From a virus (taxonomy: Duplodnaviria > Caudoviricetes): DNA of 64,000 nt. The position numbers and the translations under genes were made by a program. This document shows positions 20,578-40,629 of this stretch, piece by piece. A model generated the notes under the pieces. It searched no databases. It was not told where the DNA came from and worked only from the letters and a program-made list of their open reading frames with translations. The stretch's first letter is position 1. Each line of letters opens with the position of its first letter. Location: the IMG/VR virus record IMGVR_UViG_3300044796_000401, one strand, 5' to 3'.

Positions 20578-21456
20578 ATGCGATCAGGACGCACGTACGA
20601 AGTTTTTGTGGGCGGTAGGCCCGTGGGGCTCGTGGGGAGCACCATACGGACACTTGCTAAGCGAAGAGTAAATGGTTACACAAGACGCTTTGGTCAAGGC
20701 GTTGAACTTCGTCTCATCCGCGAAATCCCTCGTCCTGAGGACTATTCCGACTCGGACTACAATTTCTATCTCAAGGCTTGCGAGGCGATGGACATCGCCC
20801 GCAAGAAGACCTACATAGAGCACGGCGGACTGAACAAGATTTCCCCGTTGATTCAGGCATATGGGAAATCTATCCTTGAAGAGGAGATGGGGAAAATTGG
20901 AGGTCGTATCGGCATCCGTAAAATGCCCCGAGAAGCGATGCTCCGCGGTGCGAGTAATGCGGGTAAGATTGGCATTAAAAAGATGTCACGTGAAGCAAAA
21001 GTTCGCGGTGCACTAAACCAGCCTCGGGAAGCAAAAGTACGGGGCGGCCTTACGCAAGGTCTGAAACATAGAGAAAACGGTACGGGTATATTTAGCTTAA
21101 CGCCGGAAGAACGTAAACAGGCTAGTAGTAAGGGCGGGCGTAAAGCTGTTGAGAGCGGGCATCTGGCCAAAGTACGCACCGTAGAACATCAGCGAGAAGC
21201 GGGGCGTAAGGGCGGACGCAAGAGTGTTGAATCGGGGCATCTAGCACGTATTCGTGCGCCGCTTGATCATACTTCAGAACATCAAAGGAGAGCGGGTTGT
21301 ATTGGTGGTCGGATCGGTGGACCCGTTTCTATTCGTAAAATGCCCCGCGAAGCAAAAGTCCGTGGAGGTCAAATTAGTGGCTGTAGACGTTGGAACGTCA
21401 ATCGTGGAAAGCCCTGCACTTGCGGGCAGCATCGAAACTACTCCATCATGGTATAG
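20578..21456 (+). CDS. putative homing-endonuclease-like protein with REAKVRGG and GRKxVESGHL repeats
   Basis: Possible degenerate GIY-YIG-like N-terminus and basic Gly-rich repeats shared with 36025..36849. Confidence 0.55.
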   Translation: MRSGRTYEVFVGGRPVGLVGSTIRTLAKRRVNGYTRRFGQGVELRLIREIPRPEDYSDSDYNFYLKACEAMDIARKKTYIEHGGLNKISPLIQAYGKSILEEEMGKIGGRIGIRKMPREAMLRGASNAGKIGIKKMSREAKVRGALNQPREAKVRGGLTQGLKHRENGTGIFSLTPEERKQASSKGGRKAVESGHLAKVRTVEHQREAGRKGGRKSVESGHLARIRAPLDHTSEHQRRAGCIGGRIGGPVSIRKMPREAKVRGGQISGCRRWNVNRGKPCTCGQHRNYSIMV

Positions 21457-22061
21457 AGTTCCAACATAGTTTTTGATTGTCCGACCGGGTGTGCATTATC
21501 CCCAGTACAATCGCATATAGCTACAGCCCGCTTAAAATCGGGCACGGACCATCCGGGGATAATAAGGCAGTGCCGCCTATCGTATAACGGTTGAATCCCA
21601 GCATCGTGAAGCACGCTTCCAACCCAACGATCCTCTGCCCACTCTCCTGTAGGAATCTCAGCGTTAGCTACTATCTTCATCGCACGTTCGTCCAACCAGT
21701 ACGCAAACCCGCTACACCATGGTTTTGGGGGGGTTTGATTAACAAATCCTGTATAGGAATTGGTTGGCAAAGCAGCGAGCATGCGTTGGGGGTGTACGCA
21801 TGTATCATCGTCGAGCTTGCAGACTTTCTGGTATCCGTTCGCCAGCGCCCATTGGAGCATCAGCCGTACCTTGAGGGGAAGGCTGTGATAGTCGTCGGGA
21901 CAACCGTCAAGAAAAACCTCATCAGGAAGCGGTTCCCTTTCTTGTTTGGCGAGGAAAAAGCGGACATCCGCGCCCTTGACAAGCGGCACCCACGTCGCCC
22001 GCTGGGCGTCGGCTCGTGCCTTGAATTTTTCGCAGGTTACGATGGCTAGGAGGAGTTTCAC
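21438..22061 (-). CDS. GT31/Fringe-like glycosyltransferase
   Basis: R.TW, DDYHSLPLK, KLDDDT (DxD) and CSGFAYWL motifs. Confidence 0.75.
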   Translation of the reverse strand: MKLLLAIVTCEKFKARADAQRATWVPLVKGADVRFFLAKQEREPLPDEVFLDGCPDDYHSLPLKVRLMLQWALANGYQKVCKLDDDTCVHPQRMLAALPTNSYTGFVNQTPPKPWCSGFAYWLDERAMKIVANAEIPTGEWAEDRWVGSVLHDAGIQPLYDRRHCLIIPGWSVPDFKRAVAICDCTGDNAHPVGQSKTMLELYTMME

Positions 22062-22711
22062 GATTGTATGCCTTTTGCTTTTTCATGCATGGCGTACAAG
22101 TTTGTTTTATCCCGTAAATTTATCTGAGGAAAGCGCGCGGCATTATGACATGTGATGGTATCGTTGTTCGGTTGTGGCCCGATAAGGGTTGTGATGATGC
22201 GGTAACGAGGGTCATTGAACGGGATGATGCCCACTGGAACAAGTATCTGGCATACCCACCAGTCTTCGGTGTAACCCGCGGCAACTTTGCTTTCCTTTCC
22301 CCTCACTACCGCTTCCATGGCTCGACGACTGAGCCAATACCCCGTTCCCCCATACACGGCGTCTATACGTCCTTGGTCTAGTCCCTGTACGCAGCCTGAA
22401 TAGTCGTGTTTCTCGAACCCCGAGGCGAGAAGTCGTGGTATGCAAATATAGGTGTCTGTGTCGCCCTTAAAAGAGTGGTCGTAACCGTGTTCAAGTGTCC
22501 AAACAATCATCCCCAATGTTTTCAAAGAGAGAGAGTGCAAATCATCGGGAACATCGAGAAAAATTTCATCCGCCGCGGCTTCTCCCTTGGGGTTGCCTAA
22601 GAAGAACTTAATATCAATAGCACCGTTATTCAGACCCATCCAAGTGTCCCGAATCTGTTCATGGCATCCCCGGTCGCGGTGGCAGCTTTGAATGGCTAGG
22701 AGAATGCGCAT
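22058..22711 (-). CDS. GT31/Fringe-like glycosyltransferase
   Basis: Start re-called at MRILLAIQSC. IRDTW, DDLHSLSLK, KGDTDT, GGTGYWLS and EDWWV motifs. Confidence 0.75.
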   Translation of the reverse strand: MRILLAIQSCHRDRGCHEQIRDTWMGLNNGAIDIKFFLGNPKGEAAADEIFLDVPDDLHSLSLKTLGMIVWTLEHGYDHSFKGDTDTYICIPRLLASGFEKHDYSGCVQGLDQGRIDAVYGGTGYWLSRRAMEAVVRGKESKVAAGYTEDWWVCQILVPVGIIPFNDPRYRIITTLIGPQPNNDTITCHNAARFPQINLRDKTNLYAMHEKAKGIQS

Positions 22712-23733
22712 GCTTCCCCTGTGTCCCGGACGACATGCACCGCCTTGTCGTCCCATAGTTGCGCCATATTGTGGTCCTTTTCGCAAGTTACAGCAAACCG
22801 CTTTCCCAAATGCTTCTCGCACCAATCGCCCATCCGGCTCTTGAGTTCGTCCATCTCGGACTCGGATTGCAGCGTGCCGTCTTTGTTTCTGGGACATACG
22901 CGTGCGGTAAAGATGCGGACTTCCGTGCCTTGGGCAAGCCACGTCTTCACCCGTTCGACCATCGGTGGTATTGGCGGCCCGAGGGGACCGTTCCATTGCT
23001 TGGAAATGCTGACTGCCAGTGTTCCGTCGAAATCTACGCCAATCCAGCCAAGCCCCGGCCACCTATCTTGGGCAAGGCTGTAGTTTTGCACAGTGCCGAT
23101 GTCCATGATGAATTCAGAAATGGGATAAGCCGACATGCGGTTTATAAGCCGAGGTAAGACATCGAATCCCAAGTCTGCCGGAGTGCGTTGCGGAATGTCC
23201 CTTAGCAACTCGGGGGTGGCAACCATGATTCCCGAGAAAGCCCAGTCGCTCCTTGGCTCAGTGGGTTTTTCCACGAATTCCCGCACGACGAAATTATCGT
23301 CAAAAACTGCGATTCCGCATCGGCTGGGTTCTCCCACTTGGTAGACCCCGATTGTTGCGGTTGAATGCGTTTGGCGGTGGAAGGCGAGCATCCGGCCCAA
23401 ATTTGCCGTGGTGAGCACGTCCGCATAGAATACCCAAAAATCGTCTCCCGCTATCCATTCTCGGTTTGCGCCGATGGTTCCGGCGGAGCCCAGCAAAGTC
23501 GGTTCCTCTACAACTCGGATTTTCATGCCGTGATATTGGCTAAGCACGGGGCGGACGGCTTCCGCATGGGCGTGCAAATTAAGCAGAATCTCATTGATGC
23601 CCGCTCGGCGGCAAATGTCCAGCCAAATGTCAAGCATCGGCGTTCCCCGAATCGGAACTAGGCATTTGGGGATGTTGTCGGTAAGGGGTCTGAGCCGGGT
23701 TCCGTTACCTGCCGCTAGGAGAAACGCTTTCAT
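22696..23733 (-). CDS. hddC: heptose-1-phosphate guanylyltransferase fused to a C-terminal HAD phosphatase
   Basis: LLAAGNGTRLRPLT..PKCL nucleotidyltransferase motif, adjacent to gmhA and hddA. C-terminal WIGVDFDGTL...FTAR...WDDKA HAD motifs. Confidence 0.8.
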   Translation of the reverse strand: MKAFLLAAGNGTRLRPLTDNIPKCLVPIRGTPMLDIWLDICRRAGINEILLNLHAHAEAVRPVLSQYHGMKIRVVEEPTLLGSAGTIGANREWIAGDDFWVFYADVLTTANLGRMLAFHRQTHSTATIGVYQVGEPSRCGIAVFDDNFVVREFVEKPTEPRSDWAFSGIMVATPELLRDIPQRTPADLGFDVLPRLINRMSAYPISEFIMDIGTVQNYSLAQDRWPGLGWIGVDFDGTLAVSISKQWNGPLGPPIPPMVERVKTWLAQGTEVRIFTARVCPRNKDGTLQSESEMDELKSRMGDWCEKHLGKRFAVTCEKDHNMAQLWDDKAVHVVRDTGEACAFS

Positions 23734-24283
23734 TTATGGCGTCCTTGAGATATTGCGACAGGATGTGGTTTAGAGAAAGGTGGAAATCCTCTACGACTCC
23801 GTAGTTGCGGGAAGATATTATAAGAGCGATATCCACCATCTCTTTCAGTTTTCCGCCGCCGAACCCGATAAAGCCTATCGTATAGATGCTCCGTCCGCGT
23901 GCGTATTCCGCAGCATGCAGGATGTTCGGCGAATTCCCGGATGCGCTGATGGCGATGAGGATGTCAGCGGGCTGCCCTTGCCGTCCAAGCTGTCGTTTTA
24001 ATTGTTCGCTGAAAACCGATTCGTAATCGACATCATTTCCCCATGCGGTTATGTTCGGCACATTGGTCAGGCTTACCACCCGCATCCCGGCGACTTTCTC
24101 GAAATCAACAGCCATATGGGAGGCCGTGGCTGCGCTTCCGCCATTGCCGATGATGAAAAGTGTGCCGTCGCACTTGCGGATAGCAAGTAATCGTTCTGCC
24201 GCCCGCTGCACCTTTTCCACATCAACCTCGTTGAAGCACTCCTGAATGTTTTTGCTGTACTCGGACAGCTTAGCCGCCAACAT
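23705..24283 (-). CDS. gmhA: sedoheptulose-7-phosphate isomerase
   Basis: IGNGGSAATASH, AWGNDVDYESVFSEQL, ISASGNSPNI and EDFH (SIS domain). Start re-called at MLAAKL. Confidence 0.9.
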   Translation of the reverse strand: MLAAKLSEYSKNIQECFNEVDVEKVQRAAERLLAIRKCDGTLFIIGNGGSAATASHMAVDFEKVAGMRVVSLTNVPNITAWGNDVDYESVFSEQLKRQLGRQGQPADILIAISASGNSPNILHAAEYARGRSIYTIGFIGFGGGKLKEMVDIALIISSRNYGVVEDFHLSLNHILSQYLKDAINESVSPSGR

Positions 24284-25235
24284 ATATGATCTTGCTCCCT
24301 TCTGGCGCATGCGCAAACTCAATCTGGCGAAGGCCGTTTAAGCTGTTCCGCACAGCGTCTTGCTTGTCGGGTTCGCAGAAAAACAAGAGGAATCCTGTCC
24401 CGCCAGCACCCAAAAGCTTGCCGCCCAAGGCTCCCGCTCGCTTAGCCGCCTCATAGTAATTGTCAATAGTCGGGTTTGAGATACCGCCTGACATTTTCTT
24501 TTTGCACTGCCAGCCGCAGTCTAATACCTCTCCCAACTCGCGGATGTCCTTATCTCCCGTCAGGCCGAGCCAGAAAACATCAACAAGCTCGCGTAGCCTA
24601 TGTAGGTGGTTGTCCTCCGAGGGCTTGATTTCCCCAAGTACCAGTGACGCATCCCGCGTCCCCCCCACGTAGAACAGCATAAGATGGTTGAAAAAGCTGC
24701 GTTGTCTTCCGGGTGAGCACAGCACGGGATCAACGAATACCGACCCATCGGAGTTGAATAGGTAGCGATGCAATCCCCCAAACGCAGCGGCATACTGGTC
24801 CTGCTTTCCTATCGGTGCCTTGAGCGTGTCGATTTCAAGCTTGCAGGCCTGCTCGGCTAGCTGGTGGGCTGTCTGCACACGACCGCAGAATCCGTGAAGA
24901 GCATTGAAAAGCCCAACTGTAAAGCTGCTCGACGAACCCATTCCCGTTCCTGCCGGGATGTCGGCGATGGATGTTATTTCGATTCCCGAGTCTACGCCTA
25001 CTTCCCGCATCACTTCACGGCATCGGTCATGGTGGACATCGGAAATGTGCTCCACGATCTCTGTCTGGGAATAGCTGATGCGAATCGTGTGGTCAAACCT
25101 GTGGTTCACCGTGATATAGACGTACTTGTTGATCGCCGTGCTGATCACCGCACCCTGACTCTTTTCATAGAACAGGGGCAAATCAGTGCCCCCACCGACA
25201 AAGCTCATGCGAAGTGGTGTTCTGGAGATGATCAT
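24270..25235 (-). CDS. hddA: D-glycero-D-manno-heptose-7-phosphate kinase (GHMP family)
   Basis: MIISRTPLRMSFVGGGTD, PAGTGMGSSS, GKQDQYAAAFGG and GGKLLGAGGTGF motifs. Confidence 0.92.
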   Translation of the reverse strand: MIISRTPLRMSFVGGGTDLPLFYEKSQGAVISTAINKYVYITVNHRFDHTIRISYSQTEIVEHISDVHHDRCREVMREVGVDSGIEITSIADIPAGTGMGSSSSFTVGLFNALHGFCGRVQTAHQLAEQACKLEIDTLKAPIGKQDQYAAAFGGLHRYLFNSDGSVFVDPVLCSPGRQRSFFNHLMLFYVGGTRDASLVLGEIKPSEDNHLHRLRELVDVFWLGLTGDKDIRELGEVLDCGWQCKKKMSGGISNPTIDNYYEAAKRAGALGGKLLGAGGTGFLLFFCEPDKQDAVRNSLNGLRQIEFAHAPEGSKIIYVGG

Positions 25236-25975
25236 ACCAATCCAGCGTCCCGCGCACGGGTGATGTCCAAGGAGACGTTCTCTATTTCTCCCAGTCGTGC
25301 GGGTTCGTAAACTATTGGAACGTTTCTCGTTGCAGAAAACTCTTCGGCTATGCTGGCCACGCTCGTCTCCACGCCGCTTCCGATATTGAATGTTCCCGCC
25401 ATGTCCAGAACGGTCGCCTTGATGAGCGCCTTGCAAATGACATCAATGTGAACAAAGTCCCGTGTCTGAGTTCCGCCATAGACCACTATGGGGTTATCCA
25501 TCCGGAAGTGCGCGTGCGCTGCCGCTTCTTTCCTGTCGCGGTCGTTGCCGCCGAAGACGTTTCCGAACCTGAGGATGACATGGTTCGGATGCAGTCGGCG
25601 GATGATCTGCTCCGCTAGGTACTTGGATTGGCCGTAGGGGGATACGCACCCGTTCCAACTAGCTTCTTCTTCCTTTGCAAAATGCCGGTTGCCGTAGATA
25701 GCGCCTCCGGTGGAGGAAAACACCAGCCTGCCGATCCTGTTACACGTCAGGAAGGGGATCAGCTTGAAAGCATTGTTGTCCAAGCATTCGTCTGGGTCTT
25801 CCAAAGACTGCGTCACGGACGCGTGGGCGGCTAGGTGGATCACAGTGTCGAACATGCGGCCGCGTATGTTCCCGAAGTCCTGACCGTCCTTCATGTCGCA
25901 GCTTTCTCCGCTCATTAGCTGCACCAGATGCGACCCGATGTAGCCCTTGTCGCCAGTGATAAGAAGTTCGTTCAT
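25232..25975 (-). CDS. NAD-dependent epimerase/dehydratase (extended SDR)
   Basis: ITGDKGYIGSH, HLAA, SSTGGAIYG, YGQSK, LRFGNVFG and RDFVH motifs. Start re-called at MNELL. Confidence 0.88.
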   Translation of the reverse strand: MNELLITGDKGYIGSHLVQLMSGESCDMKDGQDFGNIRGRMFDTVIHLAAHASVTQSLEDPDECLDNNAFKLIPFLTCNRIGRLVFSSTGGAIYGNRHFAKEEEASWNGCVSPYGQSKYLAEQIIRRLHPNHVILRFGNVFGGNDRDRKEAAAHAHFRMDNPIVVYGGTQTRDFVHIDVICKALIKATVLDMAGTFNIGSGVETSVASIAEEFSATRNVPIVYEPARLGEIENVSLDITRARDAGLV

Positions 25976-26907
25976 ACAGTCCCCTGCATTTGTTCGGTAT
26001 ACCATGCAACGGTTTTGCCAAGCCCCTCCGAAAGCGTCGTGTGCGCCTTAAAGCCGAACGTCTCTAGGGCTCGCGAGGTGTCCAGACGGCGGCGAGGCTG
26101 ACCATCGGGTTTCGTAGCATCCCACACAATTCCCCCGTTGAAACCCGTGACCTCTTTGATGACCCCCACAAGGTCCTTCATGGAAATCTCCGATCCCGTG
26201 CCGATGTTCACTGGCTCCAGGCCATTGTACTTCTCCACGGCCAAAACGATTGCTTCGGCACAATCCTCGACATACAGGAACTCTCGGTACGCGCTACCCG
26301 TGCCCCACACAGTTATGCTCTCGGCTCCGGTTTTCTTGGCTTCAAGGCATTTCCGGATCAGCGCGGGGATGACGTGCGAGCTTTCAAGGTTGAAGTTGTC
26401 TCCGGGACCGTAGAGGTTTACCGGAATGAGGTAAATTGCGTTCATCCCGTACTGCTGGCGGTACGCTTGGCACTGTACCAGCAGGGCCTTCTTGGCGATT
26501 CCGTATGGCGCGTTGGTTTCTTCGGGATAGCCGTTCCATAGATTGTCCTCCGTGAACGGCGACGGCGTGAACTTGGGGTAAGCGCAGACAGTTCCGACTT
26601 GGACAAATTTCTCTACGCCCCGCTCCTTGGCGACATCGATCATCTCCACGCCCATGATCAGGTTGTCATAGAAGAACTTTCCCGGACTCTTCTGGTTTGC
26701 TCCTATTCCACCGCAAACAGCGGCCAAATGAACTACGATGTCGGGCCGCAACTCGTCAAACATCGCCTCCACACGGTCTCTGCGGCGCAGATCGTATTGA
26801 CTGCTGCTGAGGGAAACCACGTCGTAGCCTTCGTTCTGCGCAAGCCTCTTCGTTAGGTGCTTGCCAACGAATCCCGAACCCCCCGTTACTGCGATTCGTT
26901 TCTTCAT
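25972..26907 (-). CDS. fcl: GDP-L-fucose synthase family epimerase/reductase
   Basis: HLAAVCGGIGAN, GTVCAYPK, PEETNAPYGIAK, SSHVIPALIRK, WGTGSAYREFL and KPDGQPRR motifs. Confidence 0.92.
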   Translation of the reverse strand: MKKRIAVTGGSGFVGKHLTKRLAQNEGYDVVSLSSSQYDLRRRDRVEAMFDELRPDIVVHLAAVCGGIGANQKSPGKFFYDNLIMGVEMIDVAKERGVEKFVQVGTVCAYPKFTPSPFTEDNLWNGYPEETNAPYGIAKKALLVQCQAYRQQYGMNAIYLIPVNLYGPGDNFNLESSHVIPALIRKCLEAKKTGAESITVWGTGSAYREFLYVEDCAEAIVLAVEKYNGLEPVNIGTGSEISMKDLVGVIKEVTGFNGGIVWDATKPDGQPRRRLDTSRALETFGFKAHTTLSEGLGKTVAWYTEQMQGTV

Positions 26908-28010
26908 TCTTTGGTCTCCCCGCTGATGATGTCAGTGATGGGTGCCTCTTTCATCGTGCCCTCCAATACTTCGAATGCCCCGTGCCAGAGACGCATACCT
27001 TCAACGATTCTCTGCTGAGTTTCAGATCGCGCCCAAGCATTCAATCCGGATATTATTTCCCCGAATCCTTGGTGGTAGCCGTCTGCGGCAATATCAATCT
27101 TTCGCAGGGCATCGCAGAAGCCGTCCGTCAATTGCATGCCTTCGCGTTCTACATCCAAATCCTTCCATAGATTGTGTGAATGGCGGTCATGTAAAACCCA
27201 AGGGTCTCCGAACGCGATGGCGTGATTGAAGTGTTCTGCAAGCCGATTGATAACATAGCTAGCGAAGATGTCGGAGTGCCGACCAATATACGGGCTCAAA
27301 AAGTAAGCCGGGATGATCTCGCGGGTCAACGCGGTGTTCTGACAATCAAACGGCGTCCAAGTCCCGCGGGCCAAGGCGATAGTACCCGGCCAACCTGATT
27401 TATATCCGGTAACCCGGACTTTTCTTTCCAGTCTAGTTGTGGCGTCCACGTCCGGATCGTCCAACCAAAAACCTGCGTTGACAACAACTTTACGGCGTTC
27501 GGGTTGCATGGTCACGAAAGAATCTGCCCACCGATTCTTGGGGGAGTACCCGCGGTGATAAAACTCGACATCGCTCTCTTCTTTCAGGAACGAACAAACA
27601 TTGAACCATCCGGAGCTAGAGCCGTACGTTGGAAGCGTCACTGTTGTCCCCACTATTCTGTGGTGACCGATAGCGTCTTGGTCGGTTGCTAAATTGTCAT
27701 CGTCAAGCGTAATAATTACATCTGCGCCAGTCGTGTACGCCAACATCATACCCACGTTTCGACGTTCCACGGAGTTGATCGGCAAATGCTCTCGCAGCGT
27801 CGGGAATCGTGTCAGATAATCCCGCTGACTTGGCAGATCGAGATATAGACAGTTTGGAATCGTGGCGCAGTACTCCGCTGTTCTCGCCGCGCTCTTGTAA
27901 TCTCCAACAACAATAAAGTTCACATCCTGCCCGAATTGGTTGGCGTTTTTCTGGTACCCCCCCAAAAAGGACGGGATATTGACGGTGGTGGTAACGATTG
28001 TGGCTTTCAT
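26904..28010 (-). CDS. RGP/UDP-arabinopyranose-mutase- or STELLO-like GT-A fold protein
   Basis: RRNVG, ITLDDDN, WLDDPDVDA, CQNTAL and GRHSDI motifs. Confidence 0.65.
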   Translation of the reverse strand: MKATIVTTTVNIPSFLGGYQKNANQFGQDVNFIVVGDYKSAARTAEYCATIPNCLYLDLPSQRDYLTRFPTLREHLPINSVERRNVGMMLAYTTGADVIITLDDDNLATDQDAIGHHRIVGTTVTLPTYGSSSGWFNVCSFLKEESDVEFYHRGYSPKNRWADSFVTMQPERRKVVVNAGFWLDDPDVDATTRLERKVRVTGYKSGWPGTIALARGTWTPFDCQNTALTREIIPAYFLSPYIGRHSDIFASYVINRLAEHFNHAIAFGDPWVLHDRHSHNLWKDLDVEREGMQLTDGFCDALRKIDIAADGYHQGFGEIISGLNAWARSETQQRIVEGMRLWHGAFEVLEGTMKEAPITDIISGETKE

Positions 28011-28678: not shown

Positions 28679-28691
28679 AGTAAACCCCCCA

Positions 28692-29402: not shown

Positions 29403-30366
29403 GGTTCCTCTCCCCGCGGGCATCGACCAAATCCGAGTCCACCATCAAGCGCACTAGGCTGCGGAATTTGGTTTGGGGCACCCAACCCAATACTGTCTTT
29501 GCCTTCATTGCGTCGCCCAGCAGGAGGTCTACCTCCGTGGGGCGGTAGTACTTGGGGTCGATCCCCACATATTTTGTCCAGTCCATTTCGAGGTATCCGA
29601 ACGCCTCATCCAAGAACTCCCGTATGGTGTGCGTCTCGCCCGTGGCGATGACAAAGTCCTCCGGGGTGCCCTGTTGGAGCATGAGCCACATGGCCTCCAC
29701 GTACTCCTTGGCGTATCCCCAGTCGCGCTTGGCGTCCAGATTGCCGAGCAGGAGTTCGTCTTGCAGCCCCAGCCGTATCCTAGTGGCGGCCTTGGTGATC
29801 TTGCGCGACACGAAAGTCTCGCCCCTGCGGGGAGACTCATGGTTGAACAGGATGCCGTTGCAGGCGAACATGCCCATCTCGCGGTAATTCACCACCGTCC
29901 AGTACGAAAAGAGCTTGGCTATGCCATAGGGGCTCCGGGGGTAGAACGGCGTCTTTTCGGTCTGGGGGATTTCCAGCACCTTTCCGTACATCTCGCTGGA
30001 CGACGCTTGGTAAAACTTGGACTCCGGGCACTGCGCCTTGACCGCCTCAAGGAGCCTGAGCGTCCCGAGGGCGTCCGCGTCGGCGGTGTACTCGGGAATG
30101 TCGAAGCTGACGCGCACGTGGCTCTGCGCCCCCAAGTTGTAAACCTCGTCTGGTTTGACCTCCCCCATGAGGCGGCTTAGGGCGCTGCCATCGGTCAAGT
30201 CGTTGTGGTGCAGGTGCAGGCGGTCGAAGATGTGGTTTATCCGGCCTGTGTTGAAGCTGCTGGAGCGGCGGATGATGCCGTGGACCTCGTAGCCCTTCTC
30301 CAGCAGGAGTTCCGCCAGATACGATCCGTCCTGCCCGGTGATACCTGTGATGAGTGCTTTTTTCAT
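29380..30366 (-). CDS. gmd: GDP-mannose 4,6-dehydratase
   Basis: [45 protein letters not shown] and [10 protein letters not shown] motifs. Confidence 0.95.
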
Positions 30367-30385
30367 TTTTTCCACTCTTGAGTGG

Positions 30386-30964
30386 CTATAATTTGAGCCA
30401 GAAATCATCTTGTGACCACCCAGAAGGGGGATATGTGCCTTCCGCAAACAACCTGTAAGAATTCGCTTTCAGAAGCTCCTGCATGGCTGCTTTACCCTCG
30501 CCGCCGTCTAGATATCCGTTATGCTCGCAAGTTATGGCGTGGAACGAGAATCCCGAAGCCAGAAGATTCTCCAGCACGGATAAAACCATAGCGGCCCAGC
30601 GGGGGGCATGGACAGCCCAATCTGTACCCGGAATGGCTAAGTCGTCGATGTCCAGCGACAGGTAGTCAATGGATTTTCCGAGGCAGTACTCTTCGCAGAC
30701 CGCAGACCAATCCATTGTCATTGCGTCGCCCAAGATAGCGGGGCTCGTCCGGTTGATTTTGCACTTCTTGATCGCCTCGGGATCAATATCAACGAGAAGT
30801 CCCCGCCACCCCAACCTCTCCAACGCTAGAGTGTTGTTGATCGCAACGCCGTCGCTACACCCGATGTCAAGAAAAGTTCCCAACAGGTTGTTGAAGGGCT
30901 TCACCAACTGGTCATAAACGAATGTGTCTTGCCCTATTTGACTATATGAAATGAAATCCATCAC
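30386..30964 (-). CDS. FkbM-like SAM methyltransferase
   Basis: YSQIGQD, FLDIGC, NNTLALE..GWRG and IDYLSLDID motifs. Confidence 0.75.
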
Positions 30965-31554
30965 TTGCCCTCTTGTCGCGGATGAAGGCGCATCATGTCA
31001 CGCTCAATTTCGAATACCCAATCGGGCTTCTTTTCCGCAACGAGACGCTCCAATTCTCCAAGTGCTGGCGAGCAAGCACATCCGACATTCCCGCCGTTGA
31101 ATAGCCGAGCGTCGTCTATAATGATGACGCTGTCAGGGCACAGAGTGAAGATTGTGTTTAGCTCCCCCTTGACCGGGCTGTGATCACAATCCAAATTGGC
31201 TGGGGTGGTCAAGTCCCATCGGAAATGTGCGTCAAGGTAAAACAACGGCTTCTTGGTGAGGGTCGGCAGGAGTCGTCTCAGGACATCTATGCTGTGACCC
31301 AACAAGATGTGAACATTGGTGTCGTTTTCAAATCTCTTCTCTGCGTTCTTGAAGTAAGTCGGGCCGACCTCGATAGAGTACACCTCAGAGAAGTGCCTCT
31401 TCGTTGCCTCGACCCCGTCGCCTAAGTGCGTCCCGGTTTCAATGAGTAAATCCAACTGAAACCGTTTGCCATACTCTATAAGCGTCGCATGCTTGTAAGC
31501 CTCTGGTGGCGCTTCGCCCTTCAAGATTTCACTAATTTGAGCATCAGTTAACAT
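30961..31554 (-). CDS. putative SAM-dependent methyltransferase
   Basis: LIETGT, YSIE, FYLDAH and IIIDDAR motifs. Confidence 0.65.
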   Translation of the reverse strand: MLTDAQISEILKGEAPPEAYKHATLIEYGKRFQLDLLIETGTHLGDGVEATKRHFSEVYSIEVGPTYFKNAEKRFENDTNVHILLGHSIDVLRRLLPTLTKKPLFYLDAHFRWDLTTPANLDCDHSPVKGELNTIFTLCPDSVIIIDDARLFNGGNVGCACSPALGELERLVAEKKPDWVFEIERDMMRLHPRQEGK

Positions 31555-32279
31555 TTGTCCCCCCTAAACTTTTTGACGTTTTCTTCCGCCCGGAGCACTA
31601 TCCACATAGTGTCGGCTGGTTTGCTTAAATCTGCAAATTCTGGTTTGGCTCGGAATTCCTTCATCTCAAACTTGTAACCGGATTCTGTGAGACTGTTTCG
31701 GATAGAGGCGGGATCGCATCCCCCATCCTGACGGATGTCTTCGCAGATATAAATGCCTTTTGGACCGAGCAACGGAAACAACATTTTAATTGTCAGGACT
31801 TGATGAACAGGGTTATGAGAGCCATCATCTACGATTAGATCAATCTTTGCCAACCTCTCCTGTTGAATAAACCCCACAATATCCTGAGTTTTTGTAAGAG
31901 TTTCACCTGAAAGATGAAGGCTTGAACTCCCCCCGTCAACGTCTATAAAAGCCTCACCGTCTCTGTCAGAAAGAGCAAAATTCAATACCTTAATTTGCGG
32001 CGTGTTCTCAAATCTTTTGCTCGCCGTCTGATGAAACTCAAAAACCGGCTCAAACAAGTACACGGCAGCGGGGATGACGCCGCATCGTTTCAATAGGTCT
32101 GCTGTCCACCCCCCTTGGTACGCGCCAACGTCAAATACAACGCTGTCAGCGTCGAGGAGATAGTCTATCCTGAGTGTGTCTTCTCGACCGTCGTCATACC
32201 ACCTTTGCCTCATCACACAGTAGTCGGTCCAGTCTTTTTCCGAGACGAGTTTCAGTATCTTTTCTGTGGACTTATCCAT
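31548..32279 (-). CDS. chimeric SAM methyltransferase (FkbM-like N half, DDGSH-type C half)
   Basis: VFDVGAYQG...FEP...NFALSD followed by IDLIVDDGSH...GIYICED. Confidence 0.65.
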   Translation of the reverse strand: MDKSTEKILKLVSEKDWTDYCVMRQRWYDDGREDTLRIDYLLDADSVVFDVGAYQGGWTADLLKRCGVIPAAVYLFEPVFEFHQTASKRFENTPQIKVLNFALSDRDGEAFIDVDGGSSSLHLSGETLTKTQDIVGFIQQERLAKIDLIVDDGSHNPVHQVLTIKMLFPLLGPKGIYICEDIRQDGGCDPASIRNSLTESGYKFEMKEFRAKPEFADLSKPADTMWIVLRAEENVKKFRGDKC

Positions 32280-33144
32280 TGAATTTTTTCCGTATAGCTT
32301 CTTGCCACTCTTTTACTCCGTCGTACTGATGGAGAATTGTAACCGGACTTGATGCTTCATGAAGTTGAAAGCAGTAGTTAGACGAACCCTCCATCCTGTA
32401 CGACAAGCCCGATATGTTGTTGAGATGGTGAGCCCCGAAAACAAAGCCATCCCAGACAGTGGCAATTTTTGTTTTAGACGCCCAAGGCTCCTTTCGGATG
32501 ATGATGTTCATAGCCGCTTGGTCAGACGGCATGTCATCATAGCTGACCTTGAAGCGTTTGAGCCGCATATCTGTGTTGGACATTTTGTAAACCCCAAGAA
32601 GTAGTTCGCTTACGTCTTCAGGAGTACCTGCGATGACTCCAGCATTACAGATTTCAGTTTCTTCCATGGAGTAGTAAACGTCATGACCGAAAGCCTCAAG
32701 AGTAATAGCCCTCCACGGCCAACAGCGTTTGAGTTGTATGGCTTCGGACACGACTACCAATTTGCTGCTGCCGAGGTTCCGTGCTAGCCAATCGAACGGA
32801 TTAGACTGGAATACGATGTCTCTCGTGTCGGCGGTTAGAACGTAGCGCAGGTCTTTTGCGCCCTTGATATACTCCGATATAACTTTGAAGCGAAACACAT
32901 TCGGATGTTCATCGAATGATCCGATGTCTAGCGTCTCAATACCATATTCGGCTAGTTTTTCCAGCAACAGGGAGGGGTCTTCGTTGGCTGCTTTGTGTTT
33001 TGGGTTATTTTCAGCTACGGTTGCGGTGCCAAAAACTAGAACGCAGCGCCCAGTATAGCCCGTTCTTCGCAGGGACACTACAAACGGGTACAGCATATCC
33101 CAGTTGTACCCGGATGCCATTCCGATGATGAGATCAGTTGTCAA
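32272..33144 (-). CDS. putative GT-A fold glycosyltransferase (DTRDIVFQSNPF type)
   Basis: DxxD motif, CNAG, SDQAAMN and HQYD. TTG start assumed; an alternative ATG lies at 33174. Confidence 0.55.
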   Translation of the reverse strand: MTTDLIIGMASGYNWDMLYPFVVSLRRTGYTGRCVLVFGTATVAENNPKHKAANEDPSLLLEKLAEYGIETLDIGSFDEHPNVFRFKVISEYIKGAKDLRYVLTADTRDIVFQSNPFDWLARNLGSSKLVVVSEAIQLKRCWPWRAITLEAFGHDVYYSMEETEICNAGVIAGTPEDVSELLLGVYKMSNTDMRLKRFKVSYDDMPSDQAAMNIIIRKEPWASKTKIATVWDGFVFGAHHLNNISGLSYRMEGSSNYCFQLHEASSPVTILHQYDGVKEWQEAIRKKFNG

Positions 33145-33916
33145 GTTTGGTCCACCTTTCAGGAACGATGTCACTGCTGCCTACATGGGTGGCTATAAAC
33201 CATTGCTTGGGGGCAAATATAAGTTTGTCCGGTTGCGTGCCAAACCAAGCGCCCCACCACGAGAATGAGCTATTCGCTATAGTGCCGTGATGGCACAGGC
33301 TCATGAGCCAGATGTCCTCGTGTTCCCGTCCGGGGATGTCCCGGCTGATGATCTTATTGTGGCCCACGACCGTGAAATCGCTCGGAAAATTGGCAAGGCA
33401 CCAATCGGGATCGTCAGAAAAGACCCAGAAACGCGCATCTTTGTGGCGTGCGCGGATGCGTTCGACGGCCTCGTTGTAATAACGCATCGTTGGCATGCCG
33501 TGAAACCTTTGATTGTAGTCAAAGACATAGTCTCCCCTGCGGACATGAAGGAACGCGCTCGTCGCACCAGCAGCCACGATGGTGTCCGCCGTTTTTTGGG
33601 ATTCCTCAGACGGCTTGTTCTTAAACGACAATTCCCGGCGAACCATGTTCTCGTCAAAATACTTCTCGGTCTGCCAGTATCCGACGAACGACGTGCCGTT
33701 CGGAGCGCTGTAGACTTTTTCATCATAGCAACTGATGTCCCCGAAAAGAGGACCCGATTCCGGAGCAAACTTGATGGGCTTTATGTTGAAAACGTCAAGC
33801 CTTTCCGGGCCGATGCGATTATAGAAAACCTCTTCCTTCCGGACAGCGCCGACCGACTCACCAAAAGCGTATTGAAACATCTGGTTTGCCAAGCCACCAT
33901 GGAGCCGCACAACCAT
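33134..33916 (-). CDS. alpha-1,2-fucosyltransferase family (GT11)
   Basis: GGLANQMFQYA, GYWQ, HVRRGDY, FSDD and ANSSFSWWGAW motifs. TAATG coupling to the upstream gene. Confidence 0.9.
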   Translation of the reverse strand: MVVRLHGGLANQMFQYAFGESVGAVRKEEVFYNRIGPERLDVFNIKPIKFAPESGPLFGDISCYDEKVYSAPNGTSFVGYWQTEKYFDENMVRRELSFKNKPSEESQKTADTIVAAGATSAFLHVRRGDYVFDYNQRFHGMPTMRYYNEAVERIRARHKDARFWVFSDDPDWCLANFPSDFTVVGHNKIISRDIPGREHEDIWLMSLCHHGTIANSSFSWWGAWFGTQPDKLIFAPKQWFIATHVGSSDIVPERWTKLDN

Positions 33917-34599
33917 TAGACCCCCTGTCCTTTCCTGTAGCTTTCGTACATCCAAGCCGGATTGAATCCCACGCTGTTCGGCCATGTATAGCGTGTCTTG
34001 CCCCAAGTGCAGTGGTGCCAAACCACATAATTGTCGAATTGCTGGGAGGCGAATCCCGTCAGTTGGCCCGCCGCGATAAGCGGTCCGAGAGCGTGGCCCA
34101 CGCTAACATCTTCCGCATAGTGCGCTGGCACCATCTTGGAAATCACTTCGGCCGCACGGCGGGACAGGAAATAGCCCGCCCCTCCCGAAGCGTAAGCCCA
34201 AACCGCTATGTCGCCGAGCCTGTGGTCGCCAAATGTCGGGATTTGAACACCCGGAGGGAACCCATTCCCGAAATATCCGAAATAGTCGTAACCCTCAAAA
34301 CCGCACGAGAGGAGTCGCTCGGGCTTGACAAATGTGTCCACATCGCAAAAGAATGCGGGGTCATATCCGTTTTCAACCGTCCATCCCGCCATTTCACGGG
34401 CTTTCGAGGGAAGGGCCGTTAGGTCATCTCCAACGGCAAGCCGGACCTCGTCGCTTTTTAATGACGCGCTCCCGTTGCCGACAAAAAATCGCACGTCAAC
34501 ATTGGGGGGAAAATCCTTTCCCCATGTCTCGCGGATAGCCGTGTGGCAGCCGTTCAGCATGTCGCGTTCGCAGCTTTTGATTGCGATCAGGAGCCTCAT
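33916..34599 (-). CDS. GT31/Fringe-like glycosyltransferase
   Basis: AIRETW, CDVDT, YASGGAGYFLS and AEDVSVG motifs. Confidence 0.75.
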   Translation of the reverse strand: MRLLIAIKSCERDMLNGCHTAIRETWGKDFPPNVDVRFFVGNGSASLKSDEVRLAVGDDLTALPSKAREMAGWTVENGYDPAFFCDVDTFVKPERLLSCGFEGYDYFGYFGNGFPPGVQIPTFGDHRLGDIAVWAYASGGAGYFLSRRAAEVISKMVPAHYAEDVSVGHALGPLIAAGQLTGFASQQFDNYVVWHHCTWGKTRYTWPNSVGFNPAWMYESYRKGQGV

Positions 34600-35300
34600 A
34601 GCGTGTCGCCGCAGTCTCGCAGTGAAATTGCATGGGCCGCATCCATCCAGCTTGGCTCGTAGGAGCCGGTCCGTTTGGAGAGATGCACCGTTATGCCGTC
34701 ATAGCCGTACAGTTGCAGCCGATCCCCCTTGAAGTGGTATCTCGGATTGTGGTAGCCGAGGATGCCGAGCGGAAAGAGCACGTTGGGAACCCAGAGGTCC
34801 TCGGCCGGGATGCCCTTGTTGTCGAGCCGCTTTTCATCGAGCGGCGCGGCGAGCATGGCCTCCATCGCCCGCTTGCTCTGCCAGTACCCGCAGCCCCCGG
34901 AGGCGTACGTGTAGAAGCCCCGGCAATCCCCCACCACGGGTATGAAGCCCTCCTGCGGGTGCATCGGGAAGTGCCCGACGTAGTCGAATTTCTCGAAGCC
35001 GCTGGCGATCAATCGCCTCGGCGAGAGGTATGTATCGCGGTCAGCCTTGAACATGAACTCGTACCCGTGTTCAAGCGCCCATTTTCGCATCTCCTGCACC
35101 TTTTCAGGCAGCCATGGCTGGCCGTCCGGAACGTCCACCCGCTCCTCATCCGGGGCAAGAGCACGGTCGCCCTGCCCGACGAAAATCTTGTAGTCAAGTT
35201 CCCCCGGTACCATGCGGGTCACCCACGTGCGCCGGATGGCATCGTGGCAGCCGTTGGCCGAGTCTCGTTCGCAGGACATGACTCCGATAAGCGCTTTCAT
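34596..35300 (-). CDS. GT31/Fringe-like glycosyltransferase
   Basis: AIRRTW, KADRDT, YASGGCGYW and AEDLWV motifs. Confidence 0.75.
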   Translation of the reverse strand: MKALIGVMSCERDSANGCHDAIRRTWVTRMVPGELDYKIFVGQGDRALAPDEERVDVPDGQPWLPEKVQEMRKWALEHGYEFMFKADRDTYLSPRRLIASGFEKFDYVGHFPMHPQEGFIPVVGDCRGFYTYASGGCGYWQSKRAMEAMLAAPLDEKRLDNKGIPAEDLWVPNVLFPLGILGYHNPRYHFKGDRLQLYGYDGITVHLSKRTGSYEPSWMDAAHAISLRDCGDTL

Positions 35301-36038
35301 TTAGGCTCCTATCCAATCCTTGATTCCTTCTTTTCTCAGCATAATCGTGTGCCCCATGGTGAAAGCACGCCTGCGGAAGCCGTTGTATCTTGGGTCTTGC
35401 ACCTCAGGTCCGTAACCAAGAGAGAGCGTATTGATGTTCCAGCCCGGAAGCCAAACCGTGACCTTGTCAGCTTTCTTGCGATGCCAGAAGAATTGCCCAT
35501 GTTCTCCCCCGATTTTCACAACGTCGGTATCCCAGGGCACCTCCAACAGCACGGATACCCGTGCTATGAAATGATTCACTACGAGGTCACATCGTTGATA
35601 TGGCGATCCGTCAGGCACCAAGCGAATTTCGCGGATCACATTTTTTTCTGCGTCGTGCACAAGATTGGCTTCATAGGGATTGTTGTCTACGCGACCACCC
35701 ACCAAATCAATCTCTGAGTGCGTGTCCAGCAAATCCACAGCTTCGGTCAATTTGTCCCTGTATCCCTTGGTGTTCGCAGCAAAGTCATCGCAGAATAGAA
35801 GCATGTAGGGTGTCGTTGTCGCCTCGACTATGCGGCAGCGTTTGACTGTGAGCCCCGAATCCGGCGCAAGGCGTATACAGCTTGGACCAGCTATGGTGGC
35901 GCATCGATCATCGAAGGAATCATCCGCCACGATGACTGGACATTCTGGTAGGTGTTCCTTGATCTGCTTGAGGCATTCAACGAGATAGCCCCAGCGACAG
36001 AAGCTCGAAATTGCGACTGTAATATCAGACAGCGGCAT
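35301..36038 (-). CDS. GT2-like glycosyltransferase
   Basis: Start re-called at MPLSDITV. VIVADD, MLLFCDD and GGEH motifs. Confidence 0.7.
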   Translation of the reverse strand: MPLSDITVAISSFCRWGYLVECLKQIKEHLPECPVIVADDSFDDRCATIAGPSCIRLAPDSGLTVKRCRIVEATTTPYMLLFCDDFAANTKGYRDKLTEAVDLLDTHSEIDLVGGRVDNNPYEANLVHDAEKNVIREIRLVPDGSPYQRCDLVVNHFIARVSVLLEVPWDTDVVKIGGEHGQFFWHRKKADKVTVWLPGWNINTLSLGYGPEVQDPRYNGFRRRAFTMGHTIMLRKEGIKDWIGA

Positions 36039-36849
36039 TGGGTTCTCCGTTATGACAATAAGAACAATCTGGATCAATGATGTTCCTGCTAGCATGCCAG
36101 CGAGTATGCCGACCCCTTACCTGCGCTTCTTTGACCTCTGGTCGTGAAGCGTTGAGCTTACCCTGAATTCTTCCTAATGCTTGTATTCGTCCGTTTTCAG
36201 CATTTTTGCGTCCGTTGATACGCCCATTGATGGGACCGTAAGTTTTGCCCAGCTTTTGTATTTGGCCGCTCTCGACGTTTTTGCGCCCTTGTATATGTCC
36301 CAATGCTTGTATTCGTCCGCTTTCAACGGCTTTCTTTCCAGCAGCGATTCCTGCGATTTTCTGATGTTCTGGGGTTCGAATGCGGGCCAGCAAGCCGCTT
36401 TCTACGTTCTTTTTTCCTTGGATAAGTCCCTGAGTATGACCACCCCTAGCGCAGACTTCACGAGTCAAATTCTTAACGCCGTGTCCTGTCAACGCTTCGA
36501 TGCGCCCTTGCGTTTTGCCGCCCTTCTTGCCACCAATGCGGCCTGCTCTGCGCTTTGCCTCCCGGACTTCCTCAGTTAGTATCAGCGTTCCAGACGATCC
36601 GTCTCCGCCATCTGTCATGTTGTGAAGAATGCCAGTTCCTTTATCTTTGCGACCAAAAAGTTCAATCATAACTATTTCAGACTCAAAAGCTTCAGCCTCG
36701 TTTAACATGGGAAAAACAACAATGCGAGAGCGGTCTTTTGGACGATGAACTGCATGGGCAGAACTAATGAAAGCTCTACGTTTTTGACCCTTTCCTACAT
36801 AGTAAGGTGTCCCGTCTTCTCGTAGCCACATGTAGGTATAAAAACCCAT
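36025..36849 (-). CDS. GIY-YIG (Seg-like) homing endonuclease with GRKNVESG repeats
   Basis: FYTYMWLREDGTPYYVGKG...R...E...LHNMTDGGDG. Start re-called at MGFYTY. Confidence 0.85.
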   Translation of the reverse strand: MGFYTYMWLREDGTPYYVGKGQKRRAFISSAHAVHRPKDRSRIVVFPMLNEAEAFESEIVMIELFGRKDKGTGILHNMTDGGDGSSGTLILTEEVREAKRRAGRIGGKKGGKTQGRIEALTGHGVKNLTREVCARGGHTQGLIQGKKNVESGLLARIRTPEHQKIAGIAAGKKAVESGRIQALGHIQGRKNVESGQIQKLGKTYGPINGRINGRKNAENGRIQALGRIQGKLNASRPEVKEAQVRGRHTRWHASRNIIDPDCSYCHNGEPNAAV

Positions 36850-36866
36850 ATGTTCTTCAATACCAC

Positions 36867-37526
36867 TCACAACTCCCCCTTGGCGATCGCCTGCACGGCC
36901 GCCCACGGCACCTCCACGAAGGACGACGAAGGCATGGATTTCCGGGCGGCGTTCGTGGAATGTGACGCCGCCACCAGCAAGCTTGTGTCCGCCAAGTCGC
37001 ACCACCGGTCGCGGGGCACTTGGGTCAGGAAGTCGTAGTCCGCTCCGTGGGGCTTGTCGTTGAACCGATGCGCCTCCCAAGCGGACTTGCGGAACGCGAT
37101 CGCACCGATCCAAGCCAGGTTGGTCTTGTTTACATAATGAAACGCCCTCTGCGTCCCTTGCAAGGCGTAGTACAGTTGACTTGTACCCGTTATCGTAATT
37201 TGCGGGCTATTGAGCATCGGCTGGATTTGCCGGGAGACCCTGCTGGACGTATAAAAATCGTCATCATCTTCAACTATACAAAAAGTTCCTGCTGCACGTT
37301 CACAACAAATGTTCATTAGTTGCCCGTGGTTTAGTTTCGTTCCCAACAGGGGAAAATGCTTGATCCTTGGGTCTTCGGGCAGCAAGTCACGAATTTGGTC
37401 TGTTCCATTGTCAGCGATTATCCACTCAATATTGGGGTAGTCCTGCGAAAGGAAACACCTTATCGCCCGCGGAAAAAACTCACGGCGGTTGTAAGTGGGG
37501 GTTACAGCGCTAACTAGTGGATGCAT
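36867..37526 (-). CDS. GT2 family glycosyltransferase
   Basis: VSAVTPTYNR, SQDYPNIEWIIADNG, EDDDDFY and GADYDF motifs. Confidence 0.88.
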   Translation of the reverse strand: MHPLVSAVTPTYNRREFFPRAIRCFLSQDYPNIEWIIADNGTDQIRDLLPEDPRIKHFPLLGTKLNHGQLMNICCERAAGTFCIVEDDDDFYTSSRVSRQIQPMLNSPQITITGTSQLYYALQGTQRAFHYVNKTNLAWIGAIAFRKSAWEAHRFNDKPHGADYDFLTQVPRDRWCDLADTSLLVAASHSTNAARKSMPSSSFVEVPWAAVQAIAKGEL

Positions 37527-40567: not shown

Positions 40568-40598
40568 TCAGCCTCGGGAGATGGCTCCCGAATCCAAG

Positions 40599-40629
40599 AG
40601 GGCGGCTTATAGCCGCCCTTTTCGTTTTT
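40599..40629 (+). terminator. Rho-independent terminator
   Basis: AGGGCGGCT-TAT-AGCCGCCCT followed by TTTCGTTTTT. Confidence 0.8.

Follow-up and report, generated by a model that had tools for sequence, protein, structure and literature searches.

The 64,000-nucleotide stretch of viral DNA analysed here (IMG/VR record IMGVR_UViG_3300044796_000401; hereafter the window) is tailed-phage DNA, with genes for the large subunit of a terminase, for numerous homing endonucleases and for proteins of virion type. On its minus strand lies a run of 24 co-directional genes reading from 38962 to 21438 (17.5 kb), of which the first three are endonuclease genes and the remaining 21 open reading frames (ORFs) fill 21438-37526. 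An original prediction, made by eye from the sequence, had described this last span as about 20 tightly coupled glycan genes making a sugar coat for the capsid. The inventory was confirmed: 20 of the 21 ORFs encode sugar enzymes (hereafter the island), and one (36025-36849) is a putative GIY-YIG mobile ORF that the prediction had overlooked. Gene junctions range from -29 to +19 nt, with 19 nt as the largest gap, and promoter-like and terminator-like sites were not commoner in the run than in shuffled sequence; 38962-21438 is a single tightly coupled operon. No transmembrane (TM) segment was predicted in any of the 20 sugar enzymes. Those that make or convert sugar nucleotides, including a glycosyltransferase (GT) family 75 member and two short-chain dehydrogenases/reductases (SDRs), are the following.

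29380-30366, minus strand: GDP-mannose 4,6-dehydratase (Gmd); TIGR01472, 509 bits, above the 415-bit equivalog cut-off.
26904-28010, minus strand: GT75 GDP-sugar pyranose/furanose mutase (MtdL/Hyg20-like); E 2.9e-49 to PDB 7XPU/7XPR over ~260 aligned residues.
25972-26907, minus strand: GDP-L-fucose synthase (Fcl)-like SDR; best family NF047922 (3e-98), 329 bits, below the 500-bit cut-off.
25232-25975, minus strand: short GalE/HldD-like SDR; TIGR01179 4e-28, heptose 6-epimerase 1.7e-15.
24270-25235, minus strand: HddA-like GHMP heptose-7-phosphate kinase; best family NF049969 (1.2e-38, full length), 133 bits, below the 600-bit cut-off; PF00288 and PF08544.
23705-24283, minus strand: GmhA-like sedoheptulose-7-phosphate isomerase; best family TIGR00441 (2e-28), 99 bits, below the 209-bit cut-off; SIS_2.
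22696-23733, minus strand: sugar-1-phosphate guanylyltransferase with a C-terminal phosphatase module like those of the haloacid dehalogenase (HAD) superfamily, for which the combined role of HddC and GmhB is proposed; PF00483 3e-34, ManC-type 1.8e-32, HddC 2.9e-14.

The predicted GDP-L-fucose pathway was supported, as Gmd clears its equivalog cut-off and the second enzyme has Fcl as its best family yet stays below the cut-off. The gene directly upstream of fcl, which had been called RGP/mutase-like, kept its relationship to mutases and was refined to a GT75 enzyme similar to MtdL. MtdL is a GT75 nucleoside diphosphate (NDP)-pyranose mutase that interconverts GDP-L-fucopyranose and GDP-L-fucofuranose, as well as GDP-L-galactopyranose and GDP-L-galactofuranose; its active site consists of a DXD motif and His for Mn2+, the nucleophilic Arg159, the base Asp260, Arg257/Gln229 and the guanine-selecting Ser86 (PMC9937993). 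Alignment with 7XPU shows that the phage protein retains DDD as well as the residues corresponding to R159, D195, Q229, R257, D260, H287, R289, H292 and S86, and thus the metal, phosphate and catalytic Arg/Asp residues of MtdL and Hyg20, in the context of a glycan cluster instead of an antibiotic pathway. Two MtdL positions differ, S228 being Cys and D87 being Val; the Ser228-to-Ala mutant of MtdL is catalytically deficient (PMC9937993). Because the GT75 gene lies directly upstream of fcl, GDP-L-fucofuranose is a likely third donor. The enzyme is likely to convert a GDP-pyranose, most likely GDP-L-fucose, to the furanose form, and a GDP-heptose could be its substrate instead.

The GDP-D-glycero-alpha-D-manno-heptose pathway (GmhA, HddA, GmhB, HddC) serves the Aneurinibacillus S-layer glycan, the Campylobacter capsule and the Yersinia O-antigen. 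Counterparts of the four activities are predicted in an adjacent array in the island and, because all four are adjacent, this route is the most economical reading of the GmhA-like, HddA-like and guanylyltransferase-HAD proteins, which we infer to encode it. The island differs from the bacterial pathway in scores that fall under the equivalog cut-offs, in a GmhB function that would reside in a divergent HAD module fused to the nucleotidyltransferase, and in being phage-borne. The predicted gmhA-hddA-hddC-HAD set held in that GmhA and HddA were the best-matched families of the isomerase and the kinase, and was weakened by those scores, by the mannose-1-phosphate guanylyltransferase (ManC-type) model outscoring HddC, and by a HAD assignment made from motifs. 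Under the ManC and the HddC reading alike, the predicted product of the nucleotidyltransferase is a GDP-sugar. The HAD module comprises the C-terminal 120 residues, with the motifs DFDGT, FTAR and WDD; it had no Pfam or PDB match, single-sequence PDB search included, and shares 44% identity with an N-terminal module of gp273 from Tunturiibacter phage Tunturi 5. For the HddA-like kinase, the next-best family was the fucokinase domain. The extra SDR epimerase of the prediction was likewise supported (25232-25975); its homologues adjoin HddA/GmhA in the phage clusters L014 and L034, the heptose nucleotide is its probable substrate for modification, and its presence suggests a later heptose modification of the kind known from Campylobacter. 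The mechanism is well supported up to the GDP-sugars, and by its gene content the operon should make three rare ones.

The remaining sugar enzymes are glycosyltransferases, predicted to be largely of GT-A type, and S-adenosylmethionine (SAM)-dependent methyltransferases.

36867-37526, minus strand: soluble GT2-family glycosyltransferase, 219 aa; PF00535 1.2e-13, no TM segment.
35301-36038, minus strand: GT12-like GT-A glycosyltransferase; a 7-sequence profile matches human B4GALNT1 (5.5e-21, 222 residues).
34596-35300, minus strand: GT31/Fringe-like glycosyltransferase, paralogue 1; paralogue alignment and PDB profile matches.
33916-34599, minus strand: GT31-like glycosyltransferase, paralogue 2; paralogue alignment and profile matches.
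33134-33916, minus strand: GT11 fucosyltransferase-family enzyme; PF01531 6e-23, 81.9 bits against a 23.9-bit cut-off, HVRRGD motif.
32272-33120, minus strand: probable orphan GT-A nucleotide-sugar transferase; language-model neighbours at 0.95-0.97.
31548-32279, minus strand: FkbM-family SAM methyltransferase; TIGR01444, 40.8 bits against a 37.7-bit cut-off.
30961-31554, minus strand: putative class I methyltransferase, at motif level; ETGTHLGDG motif, homologues in other phage glycan clusters.
30386-30961, minus strand: putative class I SAM methyltransferase; weak Methyltransf_25/11/31 matches (E about 0.02).
28692-29402, minus strand: GT31-like glycosyltransferase, paralogue 3, with DxD changed to STD; paralogue alignment.
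28007-28678, minus strand: weakly GT2-like protein; PF00535 E 0.014, phrog_14945 glycosyltransferase 3.3e-4.
22058-22711, minus strand: GT31-like glycosyltransferase, paralogue 4; paralogue alignment.
21438-22061, minus strand: GT31-like glycosyltransferase, paralogue 5, with GTG as start codon, closing the operon; PF01762, 28.2 bits (cut-off 23 bits).

These assignments upheld the GT11 claim and the count of five GT31-like genes. The latter are 28-39% identical to the first paralogue and have the RxTW, DxD and ED motifs in common, save for the STD of paralogue 3; their profile matched C1GalT1 and B3GALT6/5, themselves members of GT31, in the PDB at 1.5e-5 to 9e-4, and against PF01762 (Galactosyl_T) one paralogue lay above the cut-off and one below. 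Some contigs seemed to have lost the last GT31 gene; as they are 99.99% identical, this was discarded as a gene-calling difference. Of the three genes predicted to be GT2-like, 36867-37526 stood firmly and 28007-28678 weakly (54% identical to a homologue in cluster L014; no match in a single-sequence PDB search), and 35301-36038 proved to be GT12-like. For the predicted orphan GT-A at 32272-33120, library searches with hidden Markov models (HMMs) gave no match, and the language-model neighbours provide a lead, as they include viral clusters with GT_PLOD, Nucleotid_trans and GT8 and point to GT8/GT77/PLOD-type folds. Of the three predicted SAM methyltransferases, FkbM passed its cut-off, 30386-30961 matched weakly, and 30961-31554, with no HMM match in the library searches, stands at motif level. 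It is strongly supported that glycan assembly can draw on roughly ten transferases of GT-A type or of GT11 and on as many as three O-methyltransferases.

The GT31-like family, taken as clusters at 50% identity (~2,900), is large: its profile matched 2,886 cluster representatives at E ≤ 1e-3 and 1,703 at E ≤ 1e-10. Many of these relatives are fusions of 2-4 transferase domains of up to 963 aa (for example L105/L107 5877-9240), which recall the multi-domain transferases of chloroviruses. The same profile gave 0 matches in 50,697 deposited phage records and corresponds to no PHROGs family; most other island proteins also lack a PHROGs family, megablast of the island against the 50,697 records gave no match, and Tunturi 5 holds no GT31-like sequence. 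GT31-like genes were found in 31 IMG/VR loci, often beside GT11, Gmd, Fcl, GT2 and the GT12-like gene, and among these loci are two complete phages that are unrelated, one of 112 kb with direct terminal repeats and one of 117 kb. Unannotated GT75 homologues are present in the cyanophages S-T4, Sf-CH5 and Sf-CH8 and in a 735-kb uncultured phage.

The source of the window is an uncultured jumbo myovirus-type phage of peat and ponds. Its nearest deposited relative is Tunturi 5, a 308.7-kb jumbo myovirus of Arctic soil origin (PMC11924767); identity is 42% for the large terminase subunit (TerL), which aligns in two pieces, and 70% for the major capsid protein (MCP), and the relationship is a distant one. 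A TerL pattern scan of IMG/VR brought up nothing related. The minus strand of the window is syntenic with Tunturi 5 gp332-gp350, followed by gp1. Contigs as long as 269,646 bases carry this DNA at 99.99% identity, and the island was recovered from peat and pond metagenomes, viral-fraction metagenomes and peat RNA-library contigs. The RNA-library contigs span 29 of the 30 bins of the island; they are mute on level, strand and timing, and DNA carry-over is possible.

The operon occupies a fixed slot in the phage backbone, bounded by two plus-strand genes.

19632-20456, plus strand: ST274, conserved backbone protein with a beta-sandwich fold, bounding the slot on the left; 20.0% Ser+Thr, G+C content at third codon positions (GC3) 0.85.
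39113-40567, plus strand: T484, conserved backbone multi-beta-domain protein, fibre/adhesin-like, right border of the slot; 20.9% Ser+Thr, GC3 0.84, 8 NxS/T sequons.

Throughout the clade the backbone runs gp348-like, gp347-like, ST274, slot, T484, exonuclease. The slot is empty in one IMG/VR locus, and in eight others it is filled by an endonuclease VII (EndoVII) gene alone, on the opposite strand (homologues 51-74% identical); in Tunturi 5 nothing lies between the gp346 and gp347 homologues and the island is absent. Glycan cassettes that differ in gene content occupy the slot in G002-type contigs, in L150, L210 and L215, and in the window, where the slot spans 17.6 kb, giving at least five different cassettes, the window included; wherever EndoVII was seen they lie downstream of it and co-directional with it. 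The G002 cassette (L028 3367-6785) replaces the heptose genes by an RmlC-like cupin, a DegT-type aminotransferase-like ORF and another SDR, as judged by eye from N-terminal sequence, which points to a different, amino- or deoxy-sugar glycan. Mean GC3 is 0.62 in island genes (range 0.47-0.81) against 0.76 in the backbone. Because slot occupancy varies and GC3 is lower, we regard the island as an optional, mosaic module exchanged horizontally at a conserved hot spot; by the same sequence comparisons the cassette is optional and evidently acquired horizontally, at a hot spot rich in homing-type endonuclease genes. Among virus-encoded glycan machinery the island stands out by its size, by a predicted GDP-heptose route borne by a phage, by a mutase that likely forms fucofuranose, and by the exchange of cassettes at one fixed hot spot.

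The prediction had placed the cluster between Ser/Thr-rich virion genes, which holds for the immediate flanks ST274 and T484 and fails for the big neighbours (DarB-like and others), with 10-13% Ser+Thr. The two flanking genes have the highest GC3 in the window, T484 has a strong terminator of its own at 40596-40622, and homologues (94 of ST274, 86 of T484) occur on huge-phage contigs of up to 894 kb. The AlphaFold2 model of ST274 (pLDDT 88) is a jelly-roll-like beta-sandwich whose best matches in fold searches were at background level (YomS, Z 8.6; a capsid accessory chain of phage 7-7-1, Z 7.7). The model of T484 (pLDDT 74) is multi-domain beta, with no match above background in the fold search; many T484 relatives end in Ice_binding PF11999 domains, as in fibres or adhesins. 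Atlas searches for both gave weak leads only. We infer that ST274 and T484 are located on the virion. The idea that they are parts of the island or its dedicated acceptors was dropped, as they are adjacent backbone genes in relatives that have no island.

Our best guess for the acceptor of the glycan, with a probability of roughly 45%, is a virion protein. In this reading the product would be a branched hetero-oligosaccharide with fucose and heptose, O-methylated in part, which the enzymes would build in the infected cell's cytoplasm and attach stepwise to a phage protein that ends on the virion surface. Candidate acceptors would be ST274, T484, the capsid decoration-like protein at 59612-60163 and a Ser/Thr loop of MCP. 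Because related phages hold different cassettes in the same slot, such a coat would be strain-specific, in the manner of an O-antigen. A tentative extension, less likely true than not, is that huge soil and freshwater phages of this clade swap O-antigen-like cassettes in a dedicated slot, flanked by two genes for Ser/Thr-rich surface proteins and seeded by an EndoVII homing gene, so that a methylated coat of heptose, L-fucose and possibly L-fucofuranose would act as the glyco-serotype of a strain.

The original prediction had named the capsid surface as the site of the glycan. What stands of it is the enzyme inventory, the GDP-sugar pathways, the lack of lipid-carrier parts and the setting among head and packaging genes; the capsid itself is no more than a candidate acceptor. 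All-soluble enzymes, together with the lack of lipid-carrier genes in five related cluster-bearing virus records (three of them estimated complete), favour a cytoplasmic macromolecular acceptor, and the position of the slot between two putative surface-protein genes favours virion proteins. In a 456-kb relative (G001, IMGVR_UViG_3300032770_000001), the only GT31-like gene found lies 25 bases (between open frames) downstream of the capsid gene. Adjacency of GT31-like genes to MCP was dropped as a general rule, being found in 3 of 80 related loci. MCP of the window (58632-59591, minus strand) has an 8-residue Ser/Thr-rich insertion, AMTVGSTP, within TSAMTVGSTPGSS (residues about 66-80), which is absent from Tunturi 5 and could be an exposed loop and candidate O-glycosylation site. 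It was set aside as support, as it is conserved in all 80 related capsid genes whatever their context and offers no contrast. As a side observation, the 456-kb relative carries a second capsid-protein paralogue, 53% identical, at 273765-274643, distant from the first.

Known systems lend the virion reading further weight. In PBCV-1 (Paramecium bursaria chlorella virus 1), soluble virus-encoded transferases, sugar-nucleotide enzymes and methyltransferases glycosylate a virion protein in the cytoplasm (PMC7826918). The island shares with its A064R, A111/114R, A075L, GMD and GMER a virus-encoded GDP-L-fucose synthesis, several soluble GT-A enzymes and O-methyltransferase activity (PMC7826918). 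The likeness lies in the predicted activities: the host of PBCV-1 is eukaryotic, its genes are scattered, and it has neither a heptose pathway nor a GT75 mutase. The PBCV-1 acceptor, Vp54, is proven, whereas a virion acceptor for the island is a prediction. The mycobacteriophages Che8, Corndog and Myrna are also reported to glycosylate virion proteins with phage-encoded transferases (Freeman et al. 2023, as summarised in PMC12363180). Genes for these transferases lie in or near the structural module, subunits of the capsid and the tail tube are decorated, and relatives may lack the trait, as they may lack the island (PMC12363180, PMC12619734); unlike the island, the clusters described there comprise 2-4 genes in phages of actinobacterial hosts and include no sugar-nucleotide pathways. 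By analogy, the verified self-encoded viral glycan machineries (PBCV-1, mycobacteriophages) all decorate virions, which favours a virion acceptor here, and with a virion coat the island would be likened also to chloroviruses, mimiviruses and some mycobacteriophages. If the coat is real, jumbo phages that infect Gram-negative soil bacteria would join giant eukaryotic viruses and mycobacteriophages in encoding an elaborate glycosylation of their own virions, the coats would vary through cassette exchange at a fixed hot spot, and the GT31-like family would include protein-directed glycosyltransferases of Gram-negative phages.

Several observations weigh against a virion coat. GT31-like genes lie near the capsid gene in only the 3 loci mentioned, the cluster of the unrelated complete 112-kb phage (G003) sits among replication-type genes, and close relatives with an empty slot still make virions. 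HddA, GmhA and Fcl fall below equivalog cut-offs and the HAD domain is known by motifs only; tblastn of four window transferases found no mycobacteriophage homologue; and the acceptor is a prediction for an island carried by no isolate. A Pmt-like GT-C glycosyltransferase is encoded 5.5 kb from the island. Bacterial soluble GT-A and GT11 enzymes usually act on lipid-linked O-antigen units, so that the lack of TM segments leaves room for a host lipid carrier.

The last point leads to the strongest rival, remodelling of the host envelope, which we consider possible though doubtful. Here a primer of the host, linked to undecaprenyl-(pyro)phosphate, would be lengthened by the transferases on the inner membrane face, and the host Wzx/WaaL or ABC transporter would export the product, with changed lipopolysaccharide (LPS) or capsule as the result. 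The benefit could be superinfection exclusion, smaller loss of progeny on cell debris, or protection from grazing. In bacteria, GT11, GT2 and GT31-type enzymes act on lipid-linked O-units; the cassette varies as O-antigen loci do, and the G003 cluster lies outside virion genes. For the cyanomyoviruses S-SCSM2R, S-SCSM1 and P-SSM2, in which as many as 13 transferases and 22 cell-wall genes occur, a role of these genes in modifying the host surface has been proposed (PMC12801897). The three are large lytic phages resembling the island in having at least 13 transferases (GT11, GT2) and NDP-sugar epimerases (PMC12801897), and differing from it by GT10, GT25 and KDO genes and by having no single operon, no GDP-heptose route and no GT31 radiation.

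The membrane machinery that envelope remodelling calls for is the point at which this rival loses ground. The prediction that flippase, polymerase and undecaprenyl-phosphate initiating enzyme are missing was sustained for the cluster and for the five related records: neither in the island nor in those records was an initiating transferase, flippase, polymerase or ligase found, searches of the five for Bac_transf, Glycos_transf_4, Wzx-type Polysacc_synt and Wzy_C gave nothing above cut-off, and membrane parts of the Gtr, Oac or Wzy type found in serotype conversion were seen in neither. All experimentally verified phage serotype-conversion systems are, to our knowledge, small and include membrane proteins. 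One membrane enzyme outside the cluster had been overlooked and speaks for the envelope.

43041-44165, minus strand: Pmt-like GT-C glycosyltransferase, 374-388 aa; ~10 TM segments, DE motif FDEKYY, NF058602 4e-16.

Such an enzyme would use a lipid-linked sugar at the outer membrane face. PMT_2 had no match in the five cluster-bearing relatives (0 of 5), and the gene is therefore probably independent of the glycan cluster. Five small ORFs follow it. If envelope remodelling nevertheless proved true, no other surface-conversion system borne by a phage would come near the island in size.

Another cytoplasmic or released product, either a free or small-molecule-linked glycan or glycosylated host proteins, is improbable. 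Examples would be a compatible solute, a metabolite resembling aminoglycosides, or a decoy occupying defence lectins or the receptors of phages, and MtdL and Hyg20, the sole characterised bacterial GT75 enzymes, do belong to the pathways for A201A and hygromycin A (PMC9937993). Such a product would suit an island that is mobile, can be dispensed with and includes no recognisable protein-initiating transferase; the operon holds no aglycone, aminocyclitol, nucleoside-core or export genes, and transferases typical of glycan chains prevail in it.

DNA is an unlikely acceptor, and hypermodification, in which an oligosaccharide on a hydroxylated or hydroxymethylated base would block host nucleases, is the least credible of the readings: roughly ten transferases and three methyltransferases are far above any known DNA glycan, the closest structural relatives are C1GalT1 and B3GALT and not TarP or JGT, the window DNA methylase is of the N6/N4 type and not C5, and the five cluster-bearing relatives encode no ThyA-family hydroxymethylase (PF00303) or hydroxylase (a Tet_JBP search had no match even in control genomes and is hence uninformative). 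In its favour, phage GT-A/GT-B enzymes add mono- to trisaccharides, heptose included, to 5-hydroxymethylcytosine, from clusters that can adjoin structural genes (bioRxiv 10.1101/2023.12.21.572611), RB69 and DLP3 carry polyarabinosylated 5-hydroxycytosine (PMC13326640), the GT31 motifs R...DxD...ED resemble the R...DDD...EDY/F reported for DNA GT-A enzymes, and DarB-like anti-restriction genes neighbour the island. Whether coat or envelope, the locus offers new enzymes, namely those of a predicted GDP-heptose route of a phage in which the phosphatase is fused, a mutase likely to yield GDP-L-fucofuranose and the GT31-like family, which is large and unstudied, and flags a widespread trait of phage glycobiology in carbon-rich peat ecosystems.

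The genes of the operon and its edge that are not sugar enzymes are the following.

38468-38962, minus strand: T5orf172/MUG113-type endonuclease, first gene of the operon; PF10544, PF13455 and PHROG matches.
38039-38467, minus strand: endonuclease VII; phrog_2633 8e-22, PF02945.
37510-38046, minus strand: HNH endonuclease; phrog_3377 2.6e-23.
36025-36849, minus strand: putative GIY-YIG-type mobile ORF, non-sugar; N-terminal GFYTY...YYVGKG motif only.
20578-21456, plus strand: repeat-rich ORF at the island edge; GG(R/K)K-VESG repeats in common with 36025-36849.

ORFs 61% identical to 36025-36849 adjoin capsid genes in loci L016/L039, and its PHROG matches are only of unknown function. The ORF at 20578-21456 had no family match in library searches and has a 41% identical counterpart at the same place in G002-type loci; it is probably a mobile-element ORF. 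At least 11 homing-type endonuclease genes (HNH, GIY-YIG/NUMOD3, EndoVII, T5orf172) are spread over the 64 kb, at 4991-6781, 15034-15606, 18205-19200, 20578-21456, 36025-36849, 37510-38962, 51064-51978, 55496-56233 and 57275-58477, and several of them border variable regions or adjoin the capsid gene. At the 53922-52345 junction the window does not contain the long tail-fibre block of Tunturi 5 (~14 kb, gp337-gp342, between the gp336 and gp343 homologues). The large terminase (933-4175, minus strand) is 1080 aa long, whereas that of Tunturi 5 has 637 aa; the two align over residues 8-147 and 511-1078, and an insert of roughly 360 residues, probably an intein or an endonuclease, interrupts the window protein.

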